Shown here: piece by piece, positions 43,215 to 51,385 of the stretch
Layout of the letters: every line of letters starts with the position of its first letter
How positions within the stretch are numbered: position 1 is the first letter of the stretch
NCBI GenBank assembly: GCA_963745035.1
Contig: CAVUVW010000015.1
Coordinates: 256,001 to 320,000 of the forward strand
DNA: 64,000 nucleotides
Origin: an uncultured delta proteobacterium
GTDB taxonomy: Bacteria > Desulfobacterota > Binatia > UBA9968
Direction: 5' to 3'
Program-made: the position numbers and the translations under genes
Notes under the pieces: model-generated
The model's database searches: none
Told to the model about the DNA's origin: nothing
What the model saw: the letters and a program-made list of their open reading frames with translations, nothing else

Positions 43215-44709
43215 ATCGGCTAAAGAAATATTCGAGCAGCGCGCGGCCGAAGCGCGACGCGTGAATGCCGTGGGCGGCGAAATCATCGGCAAAGGCATCC
43301 AACGCCCAGCGCGCCGCATCTCGATACCGCGCATCGCCCGAAGCACGCCAAAGTCGTAGTAAAGAAGATTGCGGCCGCGCCGTTTTGATCCAAATCGGTC
43401 AGACGGAAATTTCCGTAAGGCCGATCTCTCCGCCGCTGCAAATCGAAATAACCGCCTGCGGGATTTCTTAGCCGCGCGCTGATGAAATCCGCCAGTTCGC
43501 GCGCGCGCTCGAGATATCGCATCGCCGCCGGCGAAATATGCTTGAACCAGCGCGGTGCCCACTTGCGCTTGATCTTCGAGCAGCCCGGGCACCGGGGTGC
43601 GCCATCGTGATAGTGAAACATCCCTTGCGCCGGGCGTGCGGCAGCAACTCCAAAGAAACTCGAGAACGCTTAACGCCCGCTCGTTGCAATCGGGACGACC
43701 CAAAAGCGTCGCGGCGTCGAGATATGCGCTAACCGCCTGAGCGTTGGCGTCGCTGTAAATGCACTCGTCGATGATGGTAAAAAATTCTTCGGTGGAAGAG
43801 CTTCCGGCGCCTTCGCGGCGCAAAAAATCTTCGCAGCCGAAGAAGATGCCGCGCTGGGAGTCAAAAAGTTTGTTATTCAGATAGTCGATGATCTCTTCGG
43901 CCATATGGGCCGTATTCGGCCCGCCCGGTCAGGCGAAACACTTGGAGACAATTCGGCAGCAGGCCCGCATGCTCGCCCAAAAGCTTTTCGCGATGCGGCT
44001 GGCTCCAATCCGCCCCGCTCGTCGTGCGAAAATAGCCGCCTTCCTTCGCATCGTGAATTTGACCTTCGCGCATACCGTCGAGCGTCCGGCAAGCATGCTC
44101 GAGATATGCGACCTCTCGCGTCGCCTCGTAGAGGGCAAGCAAAAAATCGTTTGCGGCCGGATGAATAAATTTTTGACCCTGCCCATAGCCGCCGTGAATG
44201 CCATCGGCCTGGCCCATGATCGAGCGCGTAATCTCAGTCAAGCATTTCCGCATGGGAGCGCTTGCGCTCTCGCGCCGACGTTGCTGGTCGTTGCAGAAGG
44301 CGCTGCCGTCAGACGCTGTTCGAGGTTTTTCGCCTGATAACTCATGTAGACATTGAGCAACAAGTCCTTGAATTCCTCGACGGCAAGGTAGTTTGTCGCG
44401 GCAAGCAGCTCGCCGCCGGGAGTGAAAAACGCGATGTCGGCCAGCCGTTCAGATTATAGCGCGCGTCGATGTCGGGCCGCGTGGCGTTTTCGACTCGAAG
44501 CGCAATGAAGTAAGCATTCAGCAGACGCCATGTTTTCGCGGTCAGAAAGCGCGCCTTCATCCATGCGCTGGCAATAGCGGCACCAAAACGCCGACAAGAA
44601 AAGCATCACCGGCTTGTCTTGCTCGCGCGCGCGCTTTGAGAGCGTCGTCCTCCCATTCGAACCAGCGGATGAGATGAGCAAGATTTGGATTAGGCGAAAA
44701 CCGCAGCAT
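43203..44709 (-). CDS. DUF255/YyaL (SPATA20-like) thioredoxin-domain protein (many frameshifts)
   Basis: MLRFSPNPN.AHLIRW..W, DKPVMLFLSAFWCRYCQRMD, RPDIDARY..GWPT, GG.G..QKF, GGYFR...DWS.PH.EKLL. Confidence 0.8.
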
Positions 44710-44898
44710 GAGTGAATCCGGTACCCTGCATTCTTAATACTCAATATCACCCTTTTGCATCCAGGAAAAACCAGCCCCCACATTTGAACTACAGCAAACT
44801 GCGGCAGGCTCAGAAAAGTAATCGATAACCGGGCCGCTGCCATCTCGAACAAGAGAGAGACTATTCAATACAGCGTGCCGCGCTTCGAACCTCGTGCG

Positions 44899-44928
44899 TT
44901 GACAAGCTTCTCCGCCAAGGCATAAGAT
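44899..44928 (+). promoter_or_regulatory. Putative sigma70 promoter for grdE-like/grdB-like genes
   Basis: TTGACA-N18-TAAGAT, then GGAG RBS before ATG 44967. Confidence 0.55.
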
Positions 44929-44966
44929 TCCGTACTTGGCGGCGCTTCACGCTTTCGGAGAGAATC

Positions 44967-46248
44967 ATGCAACTGACCTTGGCCAATCATCCGATCACAA
45001 ACATGCGCTTCGGCGCGCCGGCGCGCCTCGAAGGCACCGATCTGGTCGTCGATGCCGACGAGCTGCGCCGTATCGTGCTCGACGACGATGCCGTCGTCAG
45101 CGTCGACTTCGAAATCGTTCGTCCGGGCGAGAGCTGCCGCGCCGGGCCGATCTTCGATGTGATTGAACCGCGAGCCAAGGAGCCCGGCTACGGCGCCGAT
45201 TTCCCCGGCATTTTGGGCGCGCCGCTTACGGCGGGAATGGGCACGACACATGTTCTAAGCGGCGCGGCGGTATCGGTGCTCGCGGAAATCTCCCCGATCT
45301 TACGAGAAGCGCCACCGGGCGCGTTCTCGAAATGAGCGGCGCTCCGGCTGAGGCGAGCGCCGTATTCCGCGCTCACGCACCTGCTCGTGATTCCGCACAC
45401 CAAACCAGATTTGCCGCGCCAAGCGATTGAAAAAGCTTATCGCATCGCCGGCATTCGAGTCGCGGTGCGCTGTCGCGCGACTCGCTCTAAGACCGCGCCG
45501 CGGATCGCGGCACCAGTTCGAGCCGGTCGGGCCGGCGCGGCAAGCCGCGCAGGTCTGCCGCGCGTCGCCTACATCGGACAGATTTTTTCCCGCCAGCGCA
45601 AACCCGCCGTCGACGAGCCGATTCTTTACGGCGCCAATACCGACGGCATGCTGCCGATCATGCTCCATCCCGATGAATGGCTCGACGGCGCCATCGTGCC
45701 GTCGCTGCATTCATGGTTCGGCGGCACGGAAACTTATTTCTATCAGAATCATCCGATCATTCTCGATCTCTATCGGCGCCATCAGGCGCGCGAAATAAAT
45801 TTCGTCGGCACGGTCGCCACCATCGCCGGCTCGGACAATTTCGACCGCGAGCGCCACTGCAAGGCGGCCGCCAATCTGGTGAAATGGAATTTGCAAGCCG
45901 ACGGCGCGGTGCTGTCCAAATACGGCGGCGGCTTGCCCCACGCCGATCTGGCGGAAACTGCGCGTCTGCTCGAAGACATGGGCGATAAAAACGGCGGTGA
46001 TGGTTTCCGACGTGTCGCGCGACCGGCGAGTCGAGTCGGCGCTGCTTTTCAATGTCCCGGAAGTCAACGCCATCGTCTACAACGGCGGCAACGGCACGTA
46101 TTGGGAAGTGCCAAAAGTGGATCGCGTCGTCGCCGCGACCGCGGAATTTACCGAACTGCTGGCCGGCCCAATGAAGATCGACGCGGCCAATATCGTCGGC
46201 GTAACCAACCAGCAAGGCGCATCGAAAATGAGAGCATTGGTGTACTAG
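44967..46248 (+). CDS. Glycine/sarcosine/betaine reductase component B alpha/beta-subunit homolog (GrdE/GrdG/GrdI-like; frameshifted)
   Basis: RPGES.R...FDVIEPRAK..FPG...G.THVL.G.AV; LPRVAYI, P.MLHPDE.LDGAIV, QNHPII.DLY.RH...NFVG, ADGA. Confidence 0.85.
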
Positions 46249-46252
46249 AAGG

Positions 46253-46325
46253 CCACGAGGCGAAAGGCGTGAGGCGTGAGTGAGGATTCATACTCATGCC
46301 TCGCGCCTCAAGCCTCATGCCTTGA
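46253..46325. repeat. Inverted array of 7-bp repeats (GAGGCGT / GCCTCAN)
   Basis: gaggcga aaggcgt gaggcgt gag ... ctcat gcctcgc gcctcaa gcctcat gcctt. Confidence 0.78.
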
Positions 46326-46334
46326 GGAGCTTCC

Positions 46335-47625
46335 ATGCGAGTCGCACATTACTTGAATCAGTTCTTCGGCGGCGTCGGCGCTGAGGAGCATGCCGGCAAG
46401 GGTTTGGAGATCCACGACGGCGCGGTCGGGCCCGGCCGGCTGCTGGAACAGTTGCTCGGCGGCAGACGCGCGCGTCGCATTGACTTTTGTCTGCGGCGAT
46501 AATTTCGCGGTCGAAAATCAAGATGAGTTGACCGCCGCCGTGCTGGAAAGGCTCCGCGCCGCGAGCATTGATCTGTTCGTCGCCGGTCCATGCTTCGATG
46601 CCGGACGCTACGGCATGGCGGCCGGCGCGCTTTGCCGCGCCGTGCAAAGCGAACTCAAGATTCCCGTAATCACCGCGATGAGCGAAGAAAATCCCGGCGT
46701 CGATCTCCACCGCGACGCGCTCTACATCATCGACTCGGGAACGAATGCGGCAAAAATGCGCGACGTGCTCGGCAAGATGGCCGAGCTCTCGGCCAGAAAC
46801 TTGTCGCCAACGCGCCGATCGGTTTGCCCGGCCGAGGAAGGCTATTTGCGGCGCGGTTGGCTGCGCGATCAACTGGTCGAAAAAACCGCGGCGACCCGGC
46901 TCGTCGACATGCTGCTTGGCGAAAATGAGCGGCGCGCCGTTCGAATCCGAAATGCCGGCCACGTCGTTCGCGCCCGTGCCGATACCGGCGGCGATGCAGG
47001 ATCTATCGAAAGCCAAGGTGATGTTGATCACCGACGGCGGCCTGGTTCCCAAGGGCAATCCGGATCGGATCGAGGGCACCGCCGCGACGCGTTGGGGCGC
47101 TTACAACATCGAAGGCCGCGACGATCTGCGCGGCGAAGAATACGAAGTTTCCCACGGCGGCTACGACACGCGATTTGTTCAGGAAGATCCCGATCGGCTG
47201 GTTCCGCTCGACGCCATGCGCGAGATGGAAAAGAACGGCGTCATCGGTAAGCTCCACGATGAATTCATTTCCACCTGCGGCCGCTCCAATCCGCTGTCGA
47301 ATACGCGCCGGCTCGGCCGGGAGATCGCCGACAAGATCAAGAAGGACGGCGTCGACGCGGTCATCCTTACGTCGACGTGAGGTACCAGCACTCGCAGCGG
47401 CGCTGCGATCACGACCGAGCTGGAGAAGGCGGGCATTCCCGGTCGTGCAAATCACCTCCGCCCTGCCGATTGCCAAAATGGTCGGCTCCAACCGGGTGGT
47501 TCTCGGCGACCGGCATCGTCCACGTGACCGGCGACGCCAAGCTTCCGCCCGCCGACGAAAAGGACCTGCGGCGAAAGTTCGTCCAGCAAGCGCTCGACGC
47601 GCTGCAGTCCGACAAGACACAGTAG
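46335..47625 (+). CDS. grdB: Glycine/sarcosine/betaine reductase selenoprotein B homolog; Sec at UGA 47378-47380 (also frameshifted)
   Basis: MRVAHYLNQFFGG.G.EE.A, CGDN, AGPCFDAGRYG, EENPG, GGLVPKGNPDRIE, HGGYD, DPDRLVPLD, VDAVILTST-UGA-GTSTRSGA..ELEKAGIPVVQI. Confidence 0.9.
47381..47416 (+). promoter_or_regulatory. Bacterial SECIS-like hairpin in grdB
   Basis: 11 nt after UGA: TCGCAGC-GGC-GCTGCGA stem-loop (47392-47408), G at loop start; GGT/ACC lower pairing. Confidence 0.72.
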
Positions 47626-47783
47626 CCGCTCCTCGTTCTGAACGAGCTTCCCGGGATTGGCGTGAGGCGGGCAACGGGGCTTGCGTCAGCGTCAACCCTT
47701 GATTGCTCGCCTGCAGGTCACGCCGCGCTCTACACAAACGGTGAATTTATCGTTAGAATCTTCTCGGCCTGCAGTTTTTATTT

Positions 47784-48434
47784 ATGGATGCGTCAAAAAC
47801 CAAGTTTCTCTTGCTTGGCCTGGGCGTCGTCGGTCTGGGCATCGTCCTGGGCACCGCCCTTTGGCTCAGAGTCGGGGCGCCGCAGGGACCGTGGGGCCAC
47901 GCTTCGGGCAACTCGGCTGAGAGTCTCGAACAGTATGGCGCGGTGCCCGATTTCGCATTGACGGAAAGAAACGGCAATGCCGTCGGCCTCGACGAGCTGC
48001 GCGGCAAGATTTGGATCGCGGATTTTATCTACACGACCTGCACGGACACCTGCCCATTGCAGACCGCGATGATGGCCAAGCTCCAGCAAGAATATGCCCA
48101 CAAGCCTGAGGTACAGTTCGTTTCGTTTACGGTCGACCCGGAGCGGGACACGCCGGAAGTGCTGACGGCTTACGGCGCCAAACACCAAGCCGACGCCGCG
48201 CGCTGGTATTTCTTGACCGGCCGGCGCGATCGCATCATGCGCTTGATCCAGGATGGGTTTCACCTGGCGGTGGCGGCGCTGCCGGTCGATGCCGCGCCCG
48301 GCGGCATGATCCCGCACAGTCCGCGCTTTGTCTTGGTCGACAAGCAATCCCGCATCCGCGGCTACTATGACAGCCGCGACCTCGAGGCATTCGCGCGCCT
48401 CAAGAACCACATCGATACTTTGTTGAAGGGGTAG
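47784..48434 (+). CDS. SCO/SenC family copper chaperone
   Basis: Membrane anchor, FIYTTCTDTCP (CxxxC), TVDPERDT, HS.RFVLVD. Confidence 0.93.
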   Translation: MDASKTKFLLLGLGVVGLGIVLGTALWLRVGAPQGPWGHASGNSAESLEQYGAVPDFALTERNGNAVGLDELRGKIWIADFIYTTCTDTCPLQTAMMAKLQQEYAHKPEVQFVSFTVDPERDTPEVLTAYGAKHQADAARWYFLTGRRDRIMRLIQDGFHLAVAALPVDAAPGGMIPHSPRFVLVDKQSRIRGYYDSRDLEAFARLKNHIDTLLKG

Positions 48435-48440
48435 ATAGAG

Positions 48441-49313
48441 ATGGCCAACGAGAAAAGCAAGAAAGGCAAGCAACCGGCTGCCGCGGGACTCGTGCGCGAG
48501 GGGCCGAACTGGCCGCTGTTTGTGCTGGCGGTTCTCGGCATGGCCTTGTCGGGATATCTCACGTTTTCCGCGTGGCAAGGAGACCGCGCCGCGTTCTGCG
48601 CCGAAGGAGCCGGCTGTGATGTCGTGCTCAGCAGCCGCTGGGCGACGCTCCTAGGCATGCCGACCTCATTCTGGGGTTTTCTAACTTACGCGCTGCTCGG
48701 CGCCGTCGCGTGGAATCGCGATGCCGCCAATCAATGGCGCTGGGCTTGGGTGATTTCCCTGTTCGGTCTGTTTTTCAGTCTGTATTTAACCGGCGTCTCG
48801 TTTTTGTCATTGCAGGCAGCCTGCCCCTACTGCCTGGGTTCGCTCGGGCTGATGACGGCTATTTTTCTTCTGACGACGTTGCAGCGACCGAAGAACTTGC
48901 CGAAGTTTTCCTGGGGACCGTTCCTGGGAAAAAGCGTCGGTGCCGCGGCGCTCGTCATGATCGCGCTGCATCTGCACTACGCCGGCTACCTGGGCAGCGC
49001 TCCCAAACCCGAGGACCCCTGGATTCGCGCCTTGGCGGAGCATCTGTCCAAGACCGACGTGAAGTTTTACGGCGCCTCGTGGTGCCCTCACTGCACCGAG
49101 CAGAAACACCTCTTTGGCAGCTCGGAAAAGCGCATCCCTTATGTCGAATGCAGCCCGGGTGGATCCAAGGGACCCCAGGCGCCGGCTTGCAAGGAGAAAA
49201 ATATTCAGAGCTATCCGACCTGGATCATCAACGGACAGCGCTATACCGGCATCCAGCCGTTGGATGCGCTCGCGCGGTTCAGCAACTTTCAATATCAAGG
49301 AGACAAACGATGA
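48441..49313 (+). CDS. Vitamin K epoxide reductase (VKOR) fused to thioredoxin-like domain
   Basis: FC....GCDVVLSS, ACPYC, FYGASWCPHC, YVEC, SYPTW. Confidence 0.93.
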   Translation: MANEKSKKGKQPAAAGLVREGPNWPLFVLAVLGMALSGYLTFSAWQGDRAAFCAEGAGCDVVLSSRWATLLGMPTSFWGFLTYALLGAVAWNRDAANQWRWAWVISLFGLFFSLYLTGVSFLSLQAACPYCLGSLGLMTAIFLLTTLQRPKNLPKFSWGPFLGKSVGAAALVMIALHLHYAGYLGSAPKPEDPWIRALAEHLSKTDVKFYGASWCPHCTEQKHLFGSSEKRIPYVECSPGGSKGPQAPACKEKNIQSYPTWIINGQRYTGIQPLDALARFSNFQYQGDKR

Positions 49314-49783
49314 TCGCGCTCCGGATGCAACAAAGCGGTGGCGCCGCTCTCGTGAGCTTGGCGCTGACAATTTTTTCGATCGGACCGGCGCACGCGGATC
49401 CTTCCAAATATCCGGCCTTCGCCCAGCAGTCGCTGCCGCAAGATATCAAGCCGGAATTTATCGGCATCGAGGATCTCGTCAAAGAGATCCAGGCGGGCGC
49501 CAAGCCGGTGATCATCGACGTGCGCACGGTCGAAGAATTTCACGAGGTGCATATTTTGGGCGCGGTTTCCGCCCCGCTCGCGGAGTTCAAGGATTATGTG
49601 AAGAGCATTCCGCGCGATCGCCCGGTCGTGCTCTATTGAGCTTGCCCCCATCACCTGGCCAGTCTGGCCTACGGCATGCTCTACGAAAACGGTTATCGCA
49701 ACATGAAGATCCTCGACGAAGGAATCGTCGGATGGTACCAAAAGCGCTATCCGATGGAAGGGACCAAAACGCCCCGCTCCTGA
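49310..49783 (+). CDS. Exported rhodanese-like selenoprotein; Sec at UGA 49637-49639
   Basis: GGAG RBS, signal peptide (AHA-D), IIDVR..EEF...HILGA, VVLY-UGA-ACPHHLA...GYRNMKILDEGIVGW...RYPME; frame continues to TGA 49781-49783, 3 nt before the queC ATG. Confidence 0.87.
49638..49681 (+). promoter_or_regulatory. Bacterial SECIS-like hairpin in rhodanese gene
   Basis: GGCCA-GTC-TGGCC (49657-49669), loop 22 nt after UGA; lower stem GAGCtTGCC/GGCAtGCTC. Confidence 0.7.
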
Positions 49784-49786
49784 GCT

Positions 49787-50483
49787 ATGGCCGCTAAGAA
49801 CGCCGTGATCCTGCTGAGCGGCGGCATCGACTCCGCCACCGCCGCCGCCGTCGCGAAACGGGACGGCTACGATCTGCATGCGTTGACCTTCCACTACGGC
49901 CAGCGCCACGAGCGGGAGATCGAGTGCGCCGGGAAAATTGCCGCATTCTTGGGGGCAAAAACACAAAAGGTCATGCGCTTCGACTTGCGAGCGATCGGCG
50001 GCTCCGCTCTCACCGACGACATCGCGGTGCCCAAGGAACGGAGCGAGGACGAGATCGCGGCCGGCGTGCCGATGACCTACGTGCCGGCGCGCAACACCAT
50101 CTTTCTGTCGTTCGCATTGGCGCTCGCCGAGCGCATCGGCTCCCAGGATATTTTTTTCGGCGCCAACCAATTGGACTACAGCGGCTATCCGGATTGCCGC
50201 GACGAATACATCCGGGCGTTTGAAAAAATGGCGAATCTGGCCACCAAGGCCGGAGTGGAGGGCAAGAGCCGGATGAGCGTTCACGCGCCGCTACTGCAAA
50301 TGACCAAGGCGGAGATCGTCAAGCTCGGTGATTCCCTCGGTCTTGACTTCGGTTTGACCTGGAGCTGCTACGATCCGCGACCGGGCGGGCGGGCGTGCGG
50401 CCAGTGCGACAGCTGCCGGCTCCGGCTGAAGGGCTTCCGCGAAGCCGGCCGCAGTCGATCCGCTCGCCTACGCCGAAGACTGA
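49787..50483 (+). CDS. queC: 7-cyano-7-deazaguanine synthase (frameshift near 50450)
   Basis: LLSGGIDS, YGQRH, TYVPARNTIFLS, DYSGYPDCR, TWSCY..CGQCDSC.LR; ends VDPLAYAED* after a one-base shift. Confidence 0.95.
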
Positions 50484-50494
50484 AGTGTTTGTCC

Positions 50495-51385
50495 ATGTTG
50501 TCCACTCCGTTCACCGCCGAATTTCTCAGTCAGCTCGAAGCGCTGCGCTTGCGCACGCGAAAGGAATTTCTCGGCAGCCACCCGGGCAGCTACTCTTCAC
50601 CGCGGCGCGGCACGAGCTTGGAGTTTTCCGACTATCGCCGCTACTCTCCCGGCGACGATCTGCGCTACATCGATTGGGGCATCTACGCGCGCAGCGACCG
50701 GCTGTTCATCAAAGTTTTTCGCCAGGAAGTCGATCTCTTCGCCTACGTCTTCATCGACACCAGCGCGTCGATGGCGTTTCCCTCGCGCGCGGAGAAATTC
50801 TTGCCCGCAAGCCATGTCGCGCTGGCGCTTTCCTACGTGGTCCTGGCCAATCACGATCACGTCAAGCTGCATTTGCTCCAAAACACGAGCAACACCGCGT
50901 CCCAGTTCTATCGCGGCCGGCGGCGCATGCGCGATTGCGTGGAATTTGCCACCTCCGCTGCCCCGGGCGGATCGCTGGATCTGGCGTTCGCGTTGAGCGA
51001 ACATCTCCAGCGGGTGCGCCGGCCCGGCAAGGCCATTCTGATTTCCGATTTCCTGATGCCGGCGGCGTCTTACCAGCAGGGACTCAACCTGCTGCGCGCG
51101 TCGAATCTCGATGTGGTGGCGATTCAGGTGCTGTCGCGCCACGAAGTCGATCCGCCCTTTCCCAACGGCAGCGTGGCGTTGATCGACAGCGAAAGTCAAA
51201 ATGAGATCAAGCATCAGTGGAGCGCGGCGGCGCGGCGCGAATACCAGGCGAGGCTCGCCCATCATAACTTGGAGATTCGCAGTTTCTGCCACCAGAGCGG
51301 CATGCACTATTCGCTCTACGTGACCGATCGCGATCTCGGCGATTTTGTCTTCGCCACCTTGCCGGCCATCGGCCTGTTCAAATAG
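50495..51385 (+). CDS. DUF58 domain protein
   Basis: G.SLEFSDYRRYSPGDDLRYIDW..YAR, IDTSASM, LISDFL. Confidence 0.93.
   Translation: MLSTPFTAEFLSQLEALRLRTRKEFLGSHPGSYSSPRRGTSLEFSDYRRYSPGDDLRYIDWGIYARSDRLFIKVFRQEVDLFAYVFIDTSASMAFPSRAEKFLPASHVALALSYVVLANHDHVKLHLLQNTSNTASQFYRGRRRMRDCVEFATSAAPGGSLDLAFALSEHLQRVRRPGKAILISDFLMPAASYQQGLNLLRASNLDVVAIQVLSRHEVDPPFPNGSVALIDSESQNEIKHQWSAAARREYQARLAHHNLEIRSFCHQSGMHYSLYVTDRDLGDFVFATLPAIGLFK

Follow-up and report, generated by a model that had tools for sequence, protein, structure and literature searches.

The 64,000-nt window (G000:C15:256001-320000) comes from a Binatia-like bacterium, an uncultured delta proteobacterium whose 7.43 Mb genome is assembled in 28 contigs and 92.6% complete. 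It carries a gene of the GRDB family, for a selenoprotein B in which an in-frame TGA encodes selenocysteine (Sec, U). The residues around Sec form the motif U-G-T-S-T-R-S-G, in which both cysteines of the classical UxxCxxC motif are serines. Judged from its homologs, this UxxSxxS arrangement is conserved throughout an uncharacterised branch of the family and does not stem from a sequencing error. The gene likely encodes a functional Sec-containing, substrate-specific protein B of a glycine-reductase-type system, and the frameshifts that interrupt it in the window are likely errors of the assembly.

The grdB-like gene starts with ATG at 46335 (MRVAHYLNQFF...) and stops with TAG at 47623-47625. 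Pfam GRDB (PF07355) matches all of the pieces into which the frameshifts divide it, with E values of 1e-10 to 1e-55 and scores of 41.6, 133.5, and 189.3 bits (cut-off 22). The TGA follows VDAVILTST, and the next codons are GGT ACC AGC ACT CGC AGC GGC. A 7-bp stem-loop begins 11 nt past the UGA and pairs UCGCAGC with GCUGCGA around a GGC loop. The C-terminus aligns with that of an intact paralog, P0001, and the gene contains six frameshifts. The original prediction, made from the letters of the window, had described the TGA and its motif, the stem-loop, a normal GrdB C-terminus, and errors of the indel type, and each of these is borne out. Read through with X at the breaks, the window copy groups in the family tree with its window-type orthologs.

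Family models place the protein in the broad selenoprotein-B subfamily only, and not in GrdB, GrdF, GrdH, or PrdB proper. The window copy can be scored only in pieces, and P0001 was used for the full-length equivalog scores. On TIGR01918 (various_sel_PB, cut-off 65.45), the window piece 46931-47440 scores 198.9 bits and P0001 447.7 bits. P0001 falls below the cut-offs of the GrdB model TIGR01917 (409.4 bits, cut-off 602.2), the GrdF model NF040794 (458.5 vs 800), and the GrdH model NF040795 (409.9 vs 775). It is also below that of the PrdB model TIGR04483, at 81.7 bits against 300, with a length of 429 aa. The UxxCxxC of GrdB, GrdF, and GrdH proper is absent from the window gene.

The comparison set for these known proteins is a clostridial sample of 150 genomes of the class of an Anaerovorax metagenome-assembled genome (MAG), 13 of which have matches, together with a five-genome search. 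Every full-length sequence extracted from them reads UGTCTRCG. This includes the sequences that pass the GrdB cut-off of 602 (L146, 771 bits; L158, 614 bits) and the GrdH cut-off of 775 (L159, 834 bits; L160, 843 bits). The two that pass the PrdB cut-off of 300 (L161, 385 bits; L164, 427 bits) read U-G-T-C-H-R-S, so a characterised member of the family already lacks the second cysteine. UxxCxxC had been taken as the family standard; this holds for the full-length clostridial sequences but is not universal. Passages of PMC6778437, which cites Wagner et al. 1999, give UxxCxxC for grdBFH, and the motif is restated in a passage of PMC13188914. For PrdB, the motif is given as UXXC (PMC1088965). Two Dehalococcoidia loci (L143 in G034, L145 in G035) encode PrdB-like proteins with the motif T-P-T-U-P-L-C-T-H and a C-terminal extension of ~240 residues after Sec; they score 152 bits on the PrdB model against its cut-off of 300.

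The UxxSxxS motif is widespread. The genome of the window has three more GRDB genes, on contigs C13, C11, and C27. The C13 paralog is intact, reads VILTST-U-GTSTRSGAAITTELEKAGIP, and is identical to the window gene around Sec. The C11 gene is intact and the C27 gene has one frameshift; both carry U-GTCSRSG. GRDB matches occur in 26 of 30 related genomes (27 of 31 with the window's own). The relatives' loci (n=29) comprise 25 UGTSTRSG, two UGSCSRGG, one UGTCSRSG, and one UGSSTRCG. A scan at one genome per species added 79 named loci: 55 with UGTSTRSG, 22 with other variants, and two with no motif shown. Among the named UGTSTRSG loci, three are from Dehalococcoidia at ~60% identity, and most have the label Candidatus Binatia or "uncultured delta proteobacterium". 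The two samples overlap, as 16 locus pairs are identical between them. Removal of duplicates leaves 114 distinct read-through proteins, of which 64, the window copy included, have UGTSTRSG. Comparison of these sequences indicates that the motif is kept under purifying selection, with a fixed U-G-T-S-T-R-S-G, and that its hosts are Candidatus Binatia-like bacteria and a few Dehalococcoidia. Soil Binatia-like bacteria carry the clade in several copies per genome. In the open literature searched, no work joining Binatota with glycine reductase was found, and Binatia is unmentioned in the papers listed.

The homolog tree with the motif mapped, proposed as a check on the window gene, puts UGTSTRSG in one clade. 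It is a quick maximum-likelihood tree (LG+G4) of 62 representatives with PrdB-like rows as outgroup and with support by the Shimodaira-Hasegawa-like approximate likelihood ratio test (SH-aLRT) only; the 437 columns kept include both motif columns. All 21 UGTSTRSG representatives fall in the one clade at an SH-aLRT of 100. Two other rows, L106 (UGTSTRCG) and L043 (UGSSTRCG), lie next to it with a support of 94, and the fork is drawn open. L043 is from G005, a genome flagged unpublished, and only the claim of a UGSSTRCG intermediate depends on that genome. Other clades have Ser, Gly, or Asp at +3 and Ser or Gly at +6. Cys presence changes at least four times on the tree at +3 and at least five times at +6, and both cysteines are thus labile in the family.

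The hairpin after the TGA is a selenocysteine insertion sequence (SECIS) element. Its alignment (A1) consists of 104 distinct homologous 48-nt stretches from the TGA on, without gaps. Stem columns 15-21 and 25-31 form standard pairs in 94.4% of cells (shuffles 82.2 ± 0.8; 0 of 500 as high), although the shuffle counts overstate the significance, the sequences being related. The compensatory classes lie in different clades of the tree. Shifting the partner by one to three columns lowers pairing to 15-58%. Changes on both sides are seen in four of the seven stem pairs. Only six of the seven are conserved, as the outermost (15-31) is formed by 72 of the 104 stretches. The single-sequence fold energy of the hairpin is not significant for a stretch so rich in G+C (z score -0.88).

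The hairpin overlaps the R-S-G-A-A codons. In pair 19-27, the first position of the +6 codon faces the third position of an Ala codon. This pair is unpaired in no sequence: it is A-U in 66 (Ser AGC...GCU), U-A in 34 (Cys UGC...GCA), G-C in two (Gly GGC...GCC), and U-G in two. Pair 18-28 is C-G in 70, U-A in 33, and A-U in one. Where +6 went from Cys to Ser, the Ala codon changed synonymously to keep the pair. In the UGTSTRSG clade, the core CGC AGC GGN GCT GCG is near-invariant even at synonymous sites, and flanking third positions are free to vary. The covariation and the conservation of synonymous sites show that the hairpin is functional. The covariation test that had been called for across homologs is therefore positive, and the locus is a clear case of coding change and RNA-structure constraint evolving together.

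These data bear on the simplest alternative, that both AGC codons are base-call errors for TGC in an ordinary UxxCxxC GrdB. The locus does hold sequence errors in the form of its frameshifts. The serine codons, however, are shared by 64 distinct sequences of many assemblies, short-read ones included. The stem partner in the window is GCU, as in all Ser-type sequences and not GCA as in the Cys type, which shows that no TGC was misread as AGC at 47396. No difference is present at 47387-47398 among the 40 contig rows listed of 348, from four covering runs. A miscall is extremely improbable, and the prediction that genuine AGC serine codons replace both flanking cysteines stands.

The frameshifts raise a different question. 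Compared with the intact paralog, the six shifts in grdB lie at ~46460, ~46797, ~46830, ~46918, 47441, and 47509. In the adjacent grdE-like gene, two stretches are out of frame and a further shift lies at ~45985, and a neighbouring gene for a DUF255/Thioredoxin_7 protein is split over three frames. The window copy and these neighbours could be a recently inactivated pseudogene cluster, with only the C13 paralog functional. The density of the damage fits such a cluster: six frameshifts in the 1.29 kb of grdB, ~5 in the grdE-like gene, and two or more in the DUF255 gene. Many open reading frames of 500-880 codons are intact elsewhere in the window, and the 2.3 kb downstream (47626-49900) have no other gap among the contig pieces listed from four runs.

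Those pieces are Logan contigs of four runs, from related strains in other samples, aligned to 43900-49900. From 47383 on, they are ~99% identical to the window (X1 record 6, 32 differences in 2518 bases; X4 record 12, 11 in 1392). They are one base shorter than the window at each of 47441 and 47509, precisely the positions of the last two shifts. The contigs that cover the part upstream of 47383 reach only 90-97% identity, and they have gaps near the other shift sites. Five of the indels were inspected by eye, and in each the window has one G or C too many. A decaying gene should collect substitutions besides indels. The window copy, read through, has 0 changes at the 117 columns invariant in the other 52 clade members, which themselves have 0 to 5, and its end branch is 0.10 compared with 0.15 and 0.17 in its sisters. 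Frame changes inside this gene also occur in two named-MAG loci (L082, L109). A long-decayed pseudogene is rejected by the conserved columns and the branch length. The six grdB frameshifts most likely belong to a cluster of assembly consensus errors spanning ~43.4-47.6 kb, and a recent pseudogene cluster is unlikely.

An AlphaFold2 model built from a 50-row alignment has two alpha/beta domains, with a mean pLDDT (predicted local distance difference test) of 91.4 and a pTM (predicted template modelling score) of 0.55. Sec347 comes after strand 340-345, at the start of helix 348-363, which places +3 and +6 on consecutive helix turns. The same alignment reveals a change elsewhere in the protein. 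Cys86 (AGP-C-F) is present in 19 of 19 UxxSxxS rows vs 0 of 31 others, and Cys96 (GRYGxA-C-G) in 0 of 19 vs 29 of 31. Cys100 is found in 19 of 19 UxxSxxS rows vs ~14 of 31 others. The positions of Cys86 and Cys96 flank the invariant G84-P85-F87-G90-R91-Y92-G93 motif. From the alignment, one thiol seems to have moved while both helix thiols were lost.

The Sec had been proposed to work without its protective cysteines, with a different chemistry or substrate as the consequence. The absence of both flanking cysteines holds at the sequence level across the clade. A different substrate is likely in view of the sub-cut-off scores and of a partner without pyruvoyl cysteines. That no protective cysteine takes part may be too strong a claim, as an invariant Cys86 has been gained.

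The partner is a GrdE-like protein. Every GRDB gene in the window's genome is preceded by a gene of the Gly_reductase (GrdE) family. The partner alignment holds 99 GrdE-like rows of at least 380 residues from fetched loci, including duplicates reached by two routes. The classical Cys pair (SGN-C-VxxC-DK) is present in eight of ten partners of UGTCTRCG genes; the two exceptions are GrdH partners (GrdI). Partners of UGTSTRSG genes have Cys at both columns in 0 of 63 cases (54 distinct), and their first site is His in 51, Tyr in six, Gln in four, and Asn in two. The window's own partner reads ...PSLHSWFGGTETY... in the cleavage-site region, without the Cys pair. According to passages of PMC10838667, FarE, like GrdI, lacks both pyruvoyl-forming cysteines and is not a proprotein. 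The same published reasoning, applied to the sequences of the UGTSTRSG partners, suggests that these are not pyruvoyl proproteins either.

Non-clostridial partners mostly also lack the cleavage-site Cys, often with SGNY for SGNC (L107, L108, L118, L121, L125-L127, L139, and others). These Cys-less partners cover the UGTGTRCG, UGTGTRSG, UGTCNRCG, UGSCNRCG, and UGTCSRSG clades. Non-pyruvoyl B components may be the rule outside Firmicutes. An in-frame TGA at 45333-35 in the window's grdE-like gene was considered as a second Sec codon and rejected, as ortholog alignment places it in an out-of-frame stretch between two frameshifts. The GrdE-like gene beside the C11 GRDB gene (G000:C11:123980-125026) is reported with one in-frame TGA.

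The genome also encodes the other components of such a system. There is one GrdA, with one TGA and the motif C-F-V-U, which has the CxxU pattern. The gene adjoining grdA, with DUF5940 and ACP_syn_III, is GrdC/D-like. Contig C17 has a cluster of selA, selB, and selD (G000:C17:315468-319742), the last with an in-frame TGA, and the genome has a tRNA-Sec. From its sequence, the selD product is a Sec-containing selenophosphate synthetase. Functional coupling of these GrdA and GrdC/D components to the B subunits is predicted.

The clade could instead stand outside the GrdA/GrdC pathway, as a self-contained reductase like D-proline reductase that is re-reduced by, e.g., the DUF255 thioredoxin-like protein and yields no acetyl phosphate. 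In the window's genome, grdA lies beside none of the four grdE/grdB pairs. A divergent DUF255/Thioredoxin_7 neighbour is present in four of four window-type loci examined (L070, L085, L092, L095), as in the window, and PrdB, which is independent of GrdA, also lacks the second Cys. However, the protein is a full-length GrdB-like protein of ~429 aa and not of the short PrdB form, with 82 bits on the PrdB model. In G019 and G023, grdA, the grdE-like gene, and a UGTSTRSG grdB-like gene are contiguous on one strand. GrdA and GRDB also co-occur in most relatives (GrdA in 26 of the 31 genomes of the relatives' sample, GRDB in 27). The C13-type pairs have HAMP sensors downstream and Amidohydro_2 or NMT1 binding proteins upstream instead of DUF255. 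A self-contained reductase is thus an improbable alternative. In Dehalococcoidia, the pairs are followed by a luciferase-like monooxygenase gene. A DUF3641 protein is encoded near the grdA-grdE-grdB operon in both genus g2 genomes (L035 3639-4040, G023; L044 3-491, G019).

As a functional protein B, the subunit would work with the adjacent GrdE-like subunit, which is probably uncleaved since the pyruvoyl-generating cysteines are absent. The substrate would probably be a substituted acetate that can lose its leaving group without a Schiff base, as in GrdH/GrdI and FarB/FarE. By analogy with the family, the selenolate would attack the alpha-carbon, and the carboxymethyl group would then pass to the Sec of GrdA, with GrdC/D producing acetyl phosphate. 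The two helix-borne cysteines would be dispensable in the clade, and Cys86 may, speculatively, take over protection of the selenol. A more specific version, put forward tentatively and considered doubtful, is that the selenium-dependent reductases of the UxxSxxS/Cys86 clade make up a new substrate class. They would cleave non-amine or self-activating X-CH2-COO- without a pyruvoyl group, with halo-, sulfonio-, and other onium-acetates as candidates. In place of the Sec-helix thiols (Cys350/353, with Cys96), Cys86 in the N-terminal domain would now protect or resolve the selenol.

Several points weigh against a functional protein B with assembly-made frameshifts. In all, ~13 indels in ~4.2 kb over three adjacent genes are unusually dense for assembly error. 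A recent true inactivation in this strain is possible, as the contigs are from other samples and the upstream ones are only 90-97% identical. The gene for GrdA is far from all four pairs in the genome. No solved relative is found by sequence (0 matches), and by fold only generic two-domain alpha/beta proteins are found, with a best TM of ~0.2; the active site thus has no template. Compared with FarB/FarE, the clade partner matches the FarE model NF053623 weakly (138 bits, cut-off 675), and no major facilitator superfamily antiporter gene (farA) or radical S-adenosylmethionine gene (farC) lies beside the examined loci. The substrate, the use of the partner, and the role of Cys86 are all matters that we infer for this clade.

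The conserved clade bears on how the family is read. A large clade without both UxxCxxC cysteines stays under selection, so the core chemistry can do without these cysteines. The motif has so far been treated as required in selenoprotein B, and a gene without it is judged a likely pseudogene in a passage of PMC6778437. If the clade is a new substrate class, a missing UxxCxxC is no mark of a pseudogene, contrary to that assumption. Gene callers cut these genes at the UGA and indel-prone assemblies fragment them, which invites false pseudogene calls. Loss of the flanking cysteines here goes along with a non-pyruvoyl partner and a thiol that may serve as a replacement. Taken together, the motif change, the relocated cysteine, and the partner point to unexplored substrates for selenium-dependent C-X bond reduction. 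The hosts are abundant, uncultured soil bacteria.

Features of the grdB-like locus, in positions of the window
Feature	Position	Strand	Basis or remark
grdB-like selenoprotein B gene, ~429 codons	46335..47625	+	Pfam GRDB on pieces; tblastn vs intact paralog P0001; tree placement
Frame pieces of the grdB-like gene	46335-46460, 46462-46796, 46800-46829, 46831-46917, 46919-47440, 47442-47507, 47512-47622	+	
In-frame TGA, read as selenocysteine	47378..47380	+	After VDAVILTST; same TGA in every extracted homolog
AGC, Ser at Sec+3 (Cys in classical GrdB)	47387..47389	+	Clade codon AGC, AGT, or TCC: always Ser
AGC, Ser at Sec+6 (Cys in classical GrdB)	47396..47398	+	First base within SECIS stem
SECIS hairpin, stem 47392-47398 with 47402-47408, loop GGC	47392..47408	+	
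TGC, clade-specific Cys86 in AGP-C-F...GRYG	46591..46593	+	50-row alignment
grdE-like partner gene (Gly_reductase PF09338), ~5 frameshifts incl. ~45985, without pyruvoyl-site cysteines	44964..46248	+	
DUF255/Thioredoxin_7 gene, divergent, frameshifted; conserved neighbour of window-type grdE/grdB pairs	43361..44724	-	
Extra base, frameshift 5	47441	+	Base missing from short-read contigs of runs X1, X4
Extra base, frameshift 6	47509	+	Base missing from short-read contigs of runs X1, X4

Directly downstream of grdB (47784-49313) are genes for a SCO1/SenC thiol-disulfide protein and a VKOR-family protein, both of thiol-redox type. Their adjacency may be chance, as the downstream genes differ in orthologous loci. 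Frameshifts in the overlapping open reading frames at 48441-49797 (VKOR/rhodanese) were considered and rejected: the contig pieces listed carry no gap, and the overlapping frames are thus spurious ones of G+C-rich DNA. A 532-codon open reading frame at 49787-51385, ahead of BatA/VWA genes, holds a complete QueC domain (residues 6-220) and DUF58 (282-494). It may be a real fusion or the result of a lost stop between two genes.

Three known systems are close to the clade. GrdB, GrdF, and GrdH are likewise two-domain proteins of ~430 residues, with Sec after a T-S-T strand at a helix start and the SECIS hairpin at the same place. They too are paired with a GrdE-family gene and have GrdA in the genome, and identity between clade and clostridial sequences is 37-46%. 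The clade differs from them in having UxxSxxS instead of UxxCxxC and in scoring under all three equivalog cut-offs. It has also lost Cys96 and gained Cys86, and its partner lacks the pyruvoyl-site cysteines.

The second system is the proposed fluoroacetate reductase of Cloacibacillus porcorum, as described in passages of PMC10838667. FarB lacks a CxxC after Sec, and FarB/FarE are thought to feed GrdA. The pairing is the same as in the clade: a GrdB-like subunit without CxxC and a GrdE-like subunit without pyruvoyl cysteines, FarB being compared by its published description. The host phylum and habitat differ. The third is PrdB, a homologous Sec domain that is already without the second Cys. 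Unlike the clade protein, PrdB has ~240 residues, keeps Cys at +3, and works with pyruvoyl-PrdA and not with GrdA. With PrdB and FarB, the absence of flanking cysteines in the clade is not without precedent.

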